Shown: positions 9,693-12,547 of the stretch, one piece after another
Layout of the letters: the number at the start of each line of letters is the position of its first letter
How positions within the stretch are numbered: the stretch's first letter is position 1
Origin: a virus
Reading direction: 5' to 3' (one strand)
Length of the DNA stretch: 64,000 nt
IMG/VR virus record: IMGVR_UViG_3300006329_000001
Coordinates: 1-64,000 of that record
Notes under the pieces: generated by a model
What the model was told of the DNA's origin: nothing
Seen by the model: only the letters and a program-made list of their open reading frames with translations
The model's database searches: none
Translations under genes and position numbers: made by a program

Positions 9693-9712
9693 GCTAAATA
9701 GAAGTACTTCTA
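9693..9712 (+). promoter_or_regulatory. late-type promoter of the plus-strand operon with overlapping 14-bp palindrome
   Basis: GCTAAATA at 9693-9700; TAGAAGTACTTCTA at 9699-9712; AGGA SD before the ATG at 9723. Confidence 0.55.
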
Positions 9713-9722
9713 CTTAGGATAA

Positions 9723-10232
9723 ATGAAAAGAGCGTTATTGCTTTTTGGTATGATTTTGATGAGTGGCACAGCAGCACGTGCCGATCTGACTCATAGACTT
9801 AGTAGCTCGACACAACTCCAAGTGGATGCGGGTTATACTTCAGTTTCTAGAGCAGCAAATACATATAGTACCAGTGGATCTGGTGTCAGCACAACTATTA
9901 CACCGTCAGGTGGTAGTGCAGCTAGTAATCTAGGCGGTATATCTGCTGTCAGCACAGCAGGTGTAGCAACTTTTGCACTTCCTGACGTGGCACAGACGAC
10001 CCAAGGAAATGCATACAGCTTTACACAATCAATAAGCACAGGTGACGCTATCGTTACTACTGCTGCTGATGTAGGTGATGTAAATGGTTATAGTAATACA
10101 GTATCGACTGCCCCTGGTACCGCTGGTTCCTTGGCTGGTACCATTAGTTCCGCTGGAGCGATGGCACTAACAGCTGGAGGTTCAGGTACATCGGCTACGG
10201 GACAGTTTGTCACAGAAGTGACCATACGATAA
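9723..10232 (+). CDS. exported Ser/Thr/Gly-rich beta protein (Sec signal peptide)
   Basis: MKRALLLFGMILMSGTAARA signal; C-terminal alternating strand GQFVTEVTIR. Confidence 0.85.
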   Translation: MKRALLLFGMILMSGTAARADLTHRLSSSTQLQVDAGYTSVSRAANTYSTSGSGVSTTITPSGGSAASNLGGISAVSTAGVATFALPDVAQTTQGNAYSFTQSISTGDAIVTTAADVGDVNGYSNTVSTAPGTAGSLAGTISSAGAMALTAGGSGTSATGQFVTEVTIR

Positions 10233-10244
10233 GGATGCTACATA

Positions 10245-10712
10245 ATGAAACGAGTTTTAGTACTACTACTGCTTAGTTTCGGGGGTGCTGCTGCAAACGC
10301 AGTGCCCGTGGTACCAAATTTTCAGCAGGGATCTATGACATCCCACACGGAGACTGAAAGTACGGTCACGGAGACCATAAATTCGATTGACATGAGGACA
10401 GGATGGGAATACACAGTGAGTGGGGTAGGCGTTTCAAACGATGGAGCAGCACTAAACCCCAACGTGAATACATCAACGGTGACAGTCTCACCAACAGTAG
10501 GGTCGGGAGAAGGAGCATTAACAGGCACCGTAACCTCTCAATACGACAACTTAGACTTCAACACTCAGGGGACGTTCACAATAACGACTCCAGGGGATGC
10601 CTTCCAATTCGTACAGAGTTACCAAGGACCAGGGATGACCAACCAGACTTTAATACAAAGAGTAACCACCATCCGAAGCGTAACAGACACAACAAGTACG
10701 TTTACCCAGTAA
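10245..10712 (+). CDS. exported Thr-rich beta protein (Sec signal peptide)
   Basis: MKRVLVLLLLSFGGAAANA signal; long alternating Thr/Ser strands at both ends; SD AAGGA. Confidence 0.85.
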   Translation: MKRVLVLLLLSFGGAAANAVPVVPNFQQGSMTSHTETESTVTETINSIDMRTGWEYTVSGVGVSNDGAALNPNVNTSTVTVSPTVGSGEGALTGTVTSQYDNLDFNTQGTFTITTPGDAFQFVQSYQGPGMTNQTLIQRVTTIRSVTDTTSTFTQ

Positions 10713-11617
10713 TTGCAGCACTTCTCGGCATCCAAATCTTACCTGCAAGAGCAGAAGTTGGTGGAGTTAGTGCTACTGCAAACCCGATAGCGAATAGTTC
10801 GGGCTCAGTAACCAACCAGGCAATACAAGTTTTACAAGGTCCATACATAACCAACACCTATGGTGGTGGTGTCCAGTGTCAGGGTGCTACGTTTAACCTA
10901 ACACCCTATGTGCAATTTGCCGATTCAAGAAAAGATCCTTGGATCGATTTTTATGATGAACCACAATATAATATGACTGATACCAGTGGTAAGATGACTC
11001 CTACTACAGTGACAGTTAAAAACTATCCTTGGGAGACATGGTATGACACCAGAACCAAGTCAGATGGTAGTAGATGGTTTGAAGATGGTGCTGACATGCA
11101 GATCACAATGGATCTAGATGGTCCTGATGGTGTGCCTGACGTAGTAAGCAATCAAACAATGACTCCTACTTGGTTTAAACCAGTGAGGACTGACATGTCT
11201 GCTAACCAGTCATTCAATGCTGGTCTCTCTGCAACACTATCAATCCCTCTTAATAGAAAGTTGATGAAGCAATGCCATGAGGCAGCTGCTGCTCAGATTA
11301 ATATGCAAAACCAGTTAGTATCTAATAAGAGACTGGACTTTGAGTTAGCTCGTCTTAAAAATTGTGGTGAATTAAAAAAAGCTGGTATATTTTTCCACCC
11401 AGCTAGTCCTTATCATTCTGTTTGTGCTGATGTAGTAGTAACAGCACCAGGTGGTACTTTAGTACCTCACGAGCATCAGTTACCTAAACCTAATTGGATT
11501 AACCCTTCTACTTCTTCTTCTTCAACGTCTTCTTCAGTGGAAGTAACCCCTTCTTCAAACGGTACTGGTCTGCCAACACTTCAGATCGGGACGGTCTCCG
11601 AGTCTGACGACCCATAA
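10403..11617 (+). CDS. exported, possibly outer-membrane protein; start uncertain
   Basis: Signal-like segment KRNRHNKYVYPVIAALLGIQILPARA; NAGLSATLSIPL followed by a helical region; four Cys in the mature part; the first ~100 codons overlap the preceding gene. Confidence 0.8.
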   Translation: MGIHSEWGRRFKRWSSTKPQREYINGDSLTNSRVGRRSINRHRNLSIRQLRLQHSGDVHNNDSRGCLPIRTELPRTRDDQPDFNTKSNHHPKRNRHNKYVYPVIAALLGIQILPARAEVGGVSATANPIANSSGSVTNQAIQVLQGPYITNTYGGGVQCQGATFNLTPYVQFADSRKDPWIDFYDEPQYNMTDTSGKMTPTTVTVKNYPWETWYDTRTKSDGSRWFEDGADMQITMDLDGPDGVPDVVSNQTMTPTWFKPVRTDMSANQSFNAGLSATLSIPLNRKLMKQCHEAAAAQINMQNQLVSNKRLDFELARLKNCGELKKAGIFFHPASPYHSVCADVVVTAPGGTLVPHEHQLPKPNWINPSTSSSSTSSSVEVTPSSNGTGLPTLQIGTVSESDDP

Positions 11618-12389
11618 TAGAGTTAACCTTAGTCATAACCTTCTTAACCACTGGTTTGATCACCTTCAATAGGAGATCTGCCAGTGGTTTTGCAAATAAA
11701 GCAGAGGTAGTTGCAACTGTTGCTATGACTGCTGTAGTTGTTACCACTCCTGCTGTTGGTAGAAACTGTTCCACTGCTGGTACAGGCTCCCAGATAGTCT
11801 CACAGATTTTACCGTCAGGTGTTAGTTTATATTCTTTTACTTGCTCATCACCCTTCTGATTCCTATCACCTATACGTCTAGCATTAGGTGGAGGACATTC
11901 TATTTCTTTGTCAGTAGGGATGTTTGTATCAGGAGTTGGTGTATCTGGTGCATCAACATTAGGCTCTTCTAAATTCAAACCTTCATCACCCTCCTCTTGG
12001 TCAGGTGTTACTGTCTGCCATGTCAATTCTCTAGCATCATAGTCTGGTGGCTCATAGTATGGCATACCTGCATCACATAATACTACGTTACCTTTAGGGT
12101 CATCGTTAACTAGATTCTTATTACTAGATGGATCTCTCTTAGCATTCTCTTTGTGTACCTTGACACAACCAGGCATGTCAACGACAGGTGTACCTACAAC
12201 TGTCACCACTGGTGGTGCTAGAGGTGTAGTAACATGAGTTTGTGCTTCCCAAGGACGTATCTCACTAACAAACACACCACGGACAGGGTATATACCAGTG
12301 CCTTGTGAACGTATTAAAGGTATCCCAGTAGCATTTACATAGATGTTTGGGATACCTGTGTTGTTTATATTAATATGAGGGATAGTCAT
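11508..12389 (-). CDS. Cys/Pro-rich protein with C-terminal membrane anchor
   Basis: Cys pairs, acidic Pro linker, hydrophobic VVTTTAVIATVATTSALFA then basic tail; start moved to the ATGA-coupled MTIPH. Confidence 0.8.
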   Translation of the reverse strand: MTIPHININNTGIPNIYVNATGIPLIRSQGTGIYPVRGVFVSEIRPWEAQTHVTTPLAPPVVTVVGTPVVDMPGCVKVHKENAKRDPSSNKNLVNDDPKGNVVLCDAGMPYYEPPDYDARELTWQTVTPDQEEGDEGLNLEEPNVDAPDTPTPDTNIPTDKEIECPPPNARRIGDRNQKGDEQVKEYKLTPDGKICETIWEPVPAVEQFLPTAGVVTTTAVIATVATTSALFAKPLADLLLKVIKPVVKKVMTKVNSIMGRQTRRPSRSEVLADQYRLKKGLLPLKKTLKKKK

Positions 12390-12547
12390 CGCCACAACCT
12401 AGTTAATTGTCTAACATCAGTGACACCATAGAGTGCCTTTACTGTTGCTTCTGCATCCTCTCTAAGATTAGATGGACAGAAGAATTCTACTTTGGTTAAT
12501 CTATTTGAGTTGAGTAATATTTGTGCTGACCATTTAGTTTCGATCAC
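12386..12547 (-). CDS. small hypothetical protein (53 aa, not in ORF track)
   Basis: GTG start; MIETKWSAQILLNSNRLTKVEFFCPSNLREDAEATVKALYGVTDVRQLTRLWR; 4-nt overlaps at both ends. Confidence 0.7.
   Translation of the reverse strand: MIETKWSAQILLNSNRLTKVEFFCPSNLREDAEATVKALYGVTDVRQLTRLWR

Follow-up and report, generated by a model that had tools for sequence, protein, structure and literature searches.

Comparative evidence for a long same-strand gene overlap with an internal start codon in T4-like cyanophages

How does the gene of a putative exported protein begin when no start codon stands beside its signal peptide? This question is raised by a trio of genes in IMG/VR virus record IMGVR_UViG_3300006329_000001, of which we analysed positions 1 to 64,000 (the window, a stretch of 64,000 nucleotides (nt), read 5' to 3' on one strand). 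The source phage is a T4-like cyanophage (Kyanoviridae-type), which at the DNA level best matches P-SSM2, S-SSM7 and P-SSM7 (about 70% identity). Gene 3 of the trio (T4-GC235) lies in the -1 frame relative to gene 2 (T4-GC236, DUF6322), and its frame is open from an ATG at 10403, well inside gene 2, to the signal peptide. Comparison with related phages, set out below, indicates that this arrangement is a real, selected same-strand gene overlap and neither a frameshift nor a sequencing error, and that gene 3 is probably translated from the internal ATG.

The original prediction, made from the window alone, had pointed to the lack of a start codon near the signal peptide, to a frame open for about 103 codons back to the ATG, and to three stops in the same frame shortly before it. 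All of this is correct: no in-frame ATG, GTG or TTG occurs between ATG 10403 and the GGVSATAN motif at 10760, the open stretch measures 310 nt or 103 codons, and the 52 codons before the ATG contain TAG at 10274 and TGA at 10355 and 10388. The impression that gene 2 codons end in T less often in the overlap is likewise borne out by counting (12 of 102, versus 13 of 52 upstream in gene 2); such codons amount to 71 of 169 in gene 1, 123 of 300 in gene 3 past the overlap, and 286 of 829 in the DNA polymerase gene of the window. A stop in the -1 frame arises when a T-ending codon is followed by a codon starting with AA, AG or GA, and T-ending codons before AA, AG or GA number 0 of 19 in the overlap. 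The +1 frame of the same bases holds 14 stops. Taken by itself, the window sequence makes the open frame no more than marginally unusual: shuffling of synonymous codons predicts 2.6 stops, none is seen, and the probability of zero stops, P(0), is 0.04.

Three queries yielded 240 IMG/VR loci, which were taken together with 13 annotated phage records, and 178 unique loci had enough upstream sequence to be compared; relatives of gene 3 are held by 426 phage records. In 177 of the 178 loci, which belong to T4-like cyanophages, no stop interrupts the gene 3 frame between a single ATG within gene 2 and the signal peptide. Two classes of start can be distinguished. Class 1 (72 loci) has overlaps of 292 to 325 nt and an ATG formed by a Gly-Trp dicodon of gene 2; it includes the source phage, P-SSM2, S-SSM7, P-SSM7, P-RSM6 and S-RIM12. 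Class 2 (105 loci) has overlaps of 166 to 178 nt and an ATG formed by a Ser-Trp or Thr-Trp dicodon further downstream; it includes S-RSM4, S-RIM8, S-RIM2 and S-SM1. P-HM2, P-TIM68 and Syn19, whose own annotation gives overlaps of 172 to 178 nt, also fit class 2, as does S-SKS1 with its overlap of 172 nt. Another canonical start at the ordinary signal-peptide distance, 14 to 45 codons before the mature N-terminus, exists in only 8 of the 178 loci. Homologues with frequent -1 frame stops and a conventional start, named in the original prediction as the pattern that would speak against an overlap, were not seen among the 177 overlapping loci; contig L198, described below, has a conventional short start.

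The number of stops to be expected was estimated from shuffles in which neither the gene 2 protein nor its codon usage changed. These give 4.5 stops in the -1 frame of the overlap for class 1 and 2.4 for class 2, with mean P(0) values per locus of 0.006 and 0.078, respectively. The number observed is zero in every one of the 177 overlapping loci, so that the test of stop-codon avoidance which had been proposed for homologous loci turned out positive. In the relatives, the mean for the +1 frame of the overlap is 11.5 stops, and the 52 codons of -1 frame ahead of the ATG carry 3.3. Over 47 divergent loci (third positions less than 60% identical pairwise), the summed log10 P(0) is -87 if the loci are treated as independent, a sum that overstates their independence. 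Codons of gene 2 that end in T and would make a stop number 0 of 1251 and 0 of 945 inside the overlaps of the two classes, versus 36 to 37% upstream of the ATG. Across the relatives, the evidence of stop avoidance is overwhelming and not in doubt.

In both classes it is at the ATG that the stop-free zone has its 5' edge. Going upstream, the first stop is reached 2 to 15 codons from the ATG in most loci of either class; it stands 2 to 4 codons before it in 57 of the 72 class-1 loci, and 5 to 10 codons before it in most class-2 loci. Class 2 provides an internal control, as the 50 codons before its own ATG, which carry a mean of 4 stops (minimum 1), mostly correspond to the part of gene 2 that is kept open in class 1.

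A trivial explanation would be an indel, introduced into the window by sequencing or assembly, that hides a conventional start. The missing start codon is what such an error would leave, and nothing else speaks for it. The same layout recurs in 177 loci and in a range of cultured isolates, and contigs from other public runs match the window exactly at 10285-10840 and 10374-10634, with no difference and no gap. Diverged strains in the public-run contigs show no net frame change at the junction of genes 2 and 3. RNA-library contigs also cover the overlap region. An indel error, which the original prediction had kept in view, is thus refuted.

Third-base usage in gene 2 differs between the overlap and the sequence before it. 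In four-fold-degenerate codons, A at the third position rises from 0.36 upstream to 0.53 in the overlap, while T falls from 0.28 to 0.14. In the homologous middle stretch, which is overlapped in class 1 and not in class 2, the T frequency at such positions is 0.11 versus 0.33 (chi-squared 86). This shift is larger than stop avoidance alone demands.

The position of the start follows from the genetic code. In the -1 frame, xTG can arise only where gene 2 has a TGN codon, which encodes Trp or Cys, and in a protein free of Cys only Trp; the place of the Trp in gene 2 therefore decides where gene 3 starts. In all 177 overlapping loci the ATG comes from an NNA-TGG dicodon whose second codon encodes Trp; mature gene 2 has no Trp or Cys ahead of this residue in 172 of 177 loci, and none after it in 150 of 177. 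The last 12 codons of gene 2 are conserved and free of Trp and Cys, and therefore no start is possible next to the signal peptide. In class 1 the Gly codon before the Trp is GGA in 65 of 65 unique sequences and is followed by TGG in 65 of 65, GGA making up 49% of the Gly codons in the gene; the Thr codon preceding the dicodon is ACA in 64 of 64, and only ACAGG-ATG-GGA is invariant around the start. The length of the leader, by which we mean the part of gene 3 ahead of its signal peptide, looks like an accident of the Trp position, the two lineages using different Trp codons that give about 55 or about 100 to 115 codons. An internal late promoter was also considered and rejected: a conserved ATAAAT 21 to 26 nt before the ATG reads TAAATT, not a TAAATA-type box as found before gene 1, and the idea was dropped because this ATAAAT simply encodes the conserved Ile-Asn of gene 2.

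Could translation begin instead at a non-canonical codon beside the signal peptide, perhaps by termination-reinitiation, the open frame being incidental? In the window the candidate is an ATT at 10712-10714, lying over the gene 2 TAA and sharing one base with that stop codon. Shine-Dalgarno sites are considered to play a minor part in marine picocyanobacteria and their phages, which would favour such a start, and contig L198 suggests that a short presequence can suffice. However, the codon at the junction varies among relatives (ATT, ATA, AGC, GGT, CCG and others), with no near-cognate codon conserved there, and a start at this place would drop the conserved basic n-region, which lies upstream. 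It would also leave unexplained the ATG-bounded stop-free zone with its 55 to 115 codons of stop avoidance, the fixed GGA and the third-base shift. Non-canonical initiation, one of the options of the original prediction, is therefore in our judgement improbable.

Another of its options was a -1 frameshift fusing genes 2 and 3, which as a programmed ribosomal event would take place towards the end of gene 2. The arrangement is reminiscent of known cassettes of this kind (dnaX; lambda G/GT), since the downstream gene is read in the -1 frame relative to gene 2 and lacks a start of its own close by. Unlike dnaX and lambda G/GT, the locus has no conserved slippery heptamer or stimulatory structure, and its open zone begins at an ATG. 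The overlap contains no X_XXY_YYZ heptamer in 53 of 65 loci, and in the other 12 the heptamer lies at varying positions; RNAalifold, run on 28 and 37 aligned sequences, predicts no conserved pairing either downstream of the ATG or in the surroundings of the gene 2 stop. Moreover, frameshifting needs neither an ATG at the 5' edge nor 55 to 115 open codons, and the fusion would put an exported domain ahead of an internal signal peptide. We regard frameshifting as very improbable indeed.

The lone exception among the 178 loci, the single metagenomic contig L198, resembles a homing-endonuclease event that has separated the overlapping pair. Between its genes 2 and 3 lies an HNH / endonuclease VII-like gene (phrog_3322, E 9e-31) at 855-1388 on the minus strand, for which a Pfam scan gave no match. 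Gene 2 keeps its normal C-terminus, about 25 to 30 nt of the old junction remain before gene 3, and gene 3 starts at an ordinary ATG 33 codons before the mature motif.

The segment that follows the leader fits a cleavable Sec-type signal, of the kind cut by signal peptidase I, as judged from its n-region, its hydrophobic core and its residues at -3 and -1. The n-region, KRNRHNK, is read from the final 12 codons of gene 2. Ala occupies position -1 in 173 of 178 loci; at position -3, 167 of 173 have A, V, S or T. Position +1 usually holds Glu or Gln, and ahead of the site runs an uncharged stretch whose median length is 17 residues. In an AlphaFold2 model of gene 3 (mean predicted local distance difference test score, pLDDT, 59), a helix spans residues 100-112, and the hydrophobic core starts near residue 100.

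Invariant alignment columns of the mature protein begin at G120. Its first 30 or so residues are almost invariant among phages that are otherwise 40 to 50% identical, and form the most conserved part of the trio by a wide margin; this conserved start has low model confidence (pLDDT below 50 for residues 111-151). Searches with gene 3 led to no assigned fold. The mature protein matches no Pfam family, Foldseek against the PDB with the model gave no match at E<=0.001, and the ESM Atlas returned only cyanophage hypothetical proteins. The best Z in a wide VIA-align search with the low-quality model was 4.0, for the long helix only. A likeness of the mature protein to TolC and outer-membrane factors finds no support in Pfam or in the Foldseek PDB search, the latter made with this same low-quality model.

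What, then, is the leader? On the same bases, amino-acid identity among relatives is 0.77 for gene 2 and 0.45 for the leader frame, and 57% of the differences fall on gene 2 third positions, which are gene 3 first positions; gene 2 is therefore the older frame and the one under constraint. The 103 overlap codons of the gene 3 frame encode 22 Lys and Arg versus 9 Asp and Glu, a net charge of +13. Stop-free synonymous shuffles still give the leader a charge of +7 to +14, the excess being mostly not significant, and the basic charge is therefore largely a by-product. Thus the extension is indeed basic, as the label 'Arg-rich' in the original prediction implied, although mostly as a consequence of reading the Thr/Gly/Ser/Asn-rich gene 2 in the -1 frame. 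Residues 1-43 and 50-97 of the AlphaFold2 model of the precursor have pLDDT below 50.

Even so, the leader is not entirely neutral. Basic residues occur in the leader frame at 1.26 to 1.56 times the opportunity in overlapped stretches versus 0.95 to 1.10 in non-overlapped ones, and for hydrophobic, aromatic and Cys residues the ratios are 0.65 to 0.86 versus 0.75 to 1.12. Third-base choice reinforces the basic character modestly. This bias fits a translated, hydrophilic, positive segment on the cytoplasmic side that does not compete with the real hydrophobic core.

Such a bias could also mean that the leader is functional, either as the cytoplasmic basic domain of an uncleaved signal-anchor (type II) protein, as a device for export timing or targeting, or as a setter of the gene 3 to gene 2 ratio. 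This explanation shares initiation at the internal ATG with the one we prefer, and differs from it in the role of the leader only. Third-base usage that favours basic and disfavours hydrophobic residues beyond the need to avoid stops, the fact that 177 of 178 loci retain a leader no shorter than 55 codons, and a basic charge that agrees with the positive-inside rule for a cytoplasmic segment all argue for it. On the other hand, the leader is poorly conserved next to gene 2 on the same bases, its length differs two-fold between lineages, its charge is largely reproduced by the shuffles, it has no folded structure in the model, and L198 is a variant without it; Ala at -1 and small residues at -3 speak for cleavage. 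We hold a functional leader to be unlikely.

The original prediction had also offered an overprinted N-terminal extension starting at an internal ATG, and it is this option that the conserved ATG at the edge of the stop-free zone, in both start classes, supports. We therefore think it likely that gene 3 is a real same-strand overlapping gene, translated from ATG 10403 in the -1 frame of gene 2, and we infer the following course for initiation, export, cleavage and the fate of the leader. The sole Trp codon of mature gene 2, placed after an A-ending codon, would supply the only available start. Ribosomes starting at ATG 10403 would read about 91 gene 2 codons out of frame, producing a basic, hydrophilic, disordered and fast-evolving leader, and would then translate a normal Sec-type segment with its basic n-region, hydrophobic core and Ala-x-Ala. 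Signal peptidase would cut after Ala117 and so release the conserved mature protein into the host envelope.

Several observations weigh against this explanation. The reduced synonymous variation that had been anticipated in the overlap is not established, as synonymous codon entropy is only slightly lower there than upstream (0.68 versus 0.74, p=0.16, not significant). The GAGGA reported before the ATG is present in the window, at 10394-10398, but it is not conserved in relatives, and the AGG that is conserved stands too near the ATG for a classical Shine-Dalgarno site. A local folding-energy profile places the structure minimum of class 1 at the ATG, and low RNA structure was for this reason tried as evidence of a start site; it was rejected, since the homologous site in class 2 has an equal minimum without an ATG. 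Counted from the N-terminus, the signal starts only after about 90 residues in class 1, a distance atypical for Sec substrates, and after about 45 residues in class 2. Lastly, if the L198 phage is viable, the leader sequence as such seems dispensable and only a start codon would be needed, a point of limited weight.

A more elaborate possibility, which we put forward tentatively and consider doubtful, is that the internal start is a regulatory device, with the leader bias as its footprint. Ribosomes translating gene 2 and crossing the ATG would limit initiation on gene 3, so that the output of gene 3 would be inverse to gene 2 translation and a low, fixed subunit ratio would result. The basic presequence of 55 to 115 residues might in addition delay or direct export, in a host that has both thylakoid and cytoplasmic membranes.

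Overprinted same-strand genes are well known in phages, as exemplified by phiX174 B within A and E within D, MS2 L, and lambda Rz1 within Rz. As in these systems, a second protein would be produced from an alternative frame of an older, conserved gene by use of an internal start codon, and the newer frame is depleted in stops, evolves fast and is predicted to be disordered. Features by which overprinted genes are recognized are found here: both frames are open in diverged homologues, a conserved ATG stands at the edge, and constraint is asymmetric. Unlike classic overprinting, which yields a whole protein, the overlap here covers no more than the N-terminal leader of the downstream gene, and it occurs in a double-stranded DNA phage genome of roughly 170 to 250 kilobases, under little size pressure. 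A further difference is that the overprinted part precedes a signal peptide, and that two lineages use different internal starts.

Two other systems invite comparison. The ESPR of autotransporters (Pfam PF13018) is likewise an N-terminal extension before an otherwise normal Sec signal peptide with n-, h- and c-regions; however, it is a conserved motif of about 25 residues, whereas the gene 3 leader has 55 to 115 residues, is poorly conserved and originates in neighbouring gene sequence read out of frame. No ESPR match appeared when the 404-residue precursor was scanned against Pfam at E up to 1. As in stop-start coupling (ATGA or TAATG), adjacent operon genes are involved, and some bases belong both to the 3' end of gene 2 and to the 5' part of gene 3. 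Contrary to that arrangement, no canonical start lies at or near the stop, and the overlap is 166 to 325 nt instead of 1 to 4 nt.

The features of the locus are collected in Table 1.

Table 1. Coordinates of the three genes, of the elements within the overlap and of the convergent neighbour in the window
Feature	Position	Strand	Description
Gene 1 (T4-GC237)	9723..10232	+	169 amino acids, N-terminal signal peptide; phrog_564, E 2e-45; syntenic GC237 in P-SSM2, S-SSM7 and P-SSM7
Gene 2 (T4-GC236, DUF6322)	10245..10712	+	Exported protein of 155 amino acids; phrog_650; older, strongly conserved frame of the overlap
Last upstream stop (TGA) in the gene 3 frame	10388..10390	+	Bounds the stop-free zone on its 5' side, four codons ahead of the ATG
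Gly-Trp dicodon GGA TGG of gene 2	10401..10406	+	Bases 3-5 are the gene 3 ATG, 10403-10405
Gene 3 frame (T4-GC235, phrog_848)	open 10403..11617	+	404 amino acids; -1 frame relative to gene 2
Dual-coding overlap	10403..10712	+	310 nt; frame 0 for gene 2, -1 for gene 3
Leader of the gene 3 precursor (residues 1-91)	10403..10675	+	Basic, low-complexity
Signal-peptide-like segment, residues 92-117	10676..10753	+	Basic n-region KRNRHNK, hydrophobic core, Ala-Arg-Ala at -3 to -1
Predicted mature gene 3 protein (T4-GC235) and stop codon	10754..11617	+	Matches phrog_848 and phrog_1755
Convergent gene (T4-GC234)	11508..12395	-	C-terminal membrane anchor; phrog_570; syntenic in relatives

The trio, all on the plus strand, is flanked by hsp20 and by a convergent membrane-protein gene. 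A CTAAATA box occupies 9693-9699 in the divergent spacer that gene 1 shares with hsp20, 24 nt ahead of the gene 1 start. Gene 2 matches Pfam DUF6322 (PF19847) with E 7e-34 and 116.8 bits (cut-off 30.6), over profile positions 1-100 of 100. The convergent gene, T4-GC234, has no match in a Pfam scan. Its 3' end overlaps that of gene 3 tail to tail by 110 nt (11508-11617), and the same kind of overlap measures 215 nt in P-SSM2, 221 nt in P-SSM7 and 101 nt in S-RIM2, and is absent from S-SM1 and Syn19. The Ser/Pro-rich tail of gene 3 has a conserved motif at its extreme end in many class-1 relatives. In one oligo-dT RNA sequencing run (X3), the summed contig depth reached 40,000 to 63,000 over the Ser-rich, low-complexity stretch 11446-11587, versus 10 to 50 elsewhere, a peak that is probably due to cross-matching of unrelated abundant transcripts and not to phage expression.

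Reference records treat the locus in different ways. Both overlapping open reading frames (ORFs) are listed as automatic calls in GenBank for S-RIM8, S-RIM2, S-SM1, S-RIM12, P-HM2, P-TIM68 and Syn19. The P-SSM2 record starts gene 3 at a GTG inside the signal peptide. Gene 2 is omitted from the records of S-SSM7, P-SSM7, P-RSM6 and S-SKS1, that of S-SSM7 listing an ORF of 29 amino acids (GC1368) in this stretch; the S-RSM4 record omits gene 3, and lists an opposite-strand ORF of 39 amino acids within it. The present result corrects these reference annotations. Our literature searches turned up no paper dealing with the overlap or with DUF6322, and neither ribosome-profiling studies of cyanophage infection nor proteomic data.

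In large double-stranded DNA phage and bacterial genomes, a long overlap of genes on one strand is usually written off as an annotation error. The one described here has unusually clean comparative support, together with two natural controls, namely lineages with overlaps of different length and a variant in which an endonuclease gene separates the pair. It illustrates how the genetic code limits overprinted starts, a canonical start in the -1 frame being available only before a Trp or Cys codon. For the cyanophages themselves, the analysis would define the true precursor of a core exported protein, which matters for expressing or deleting the genes of the trio.

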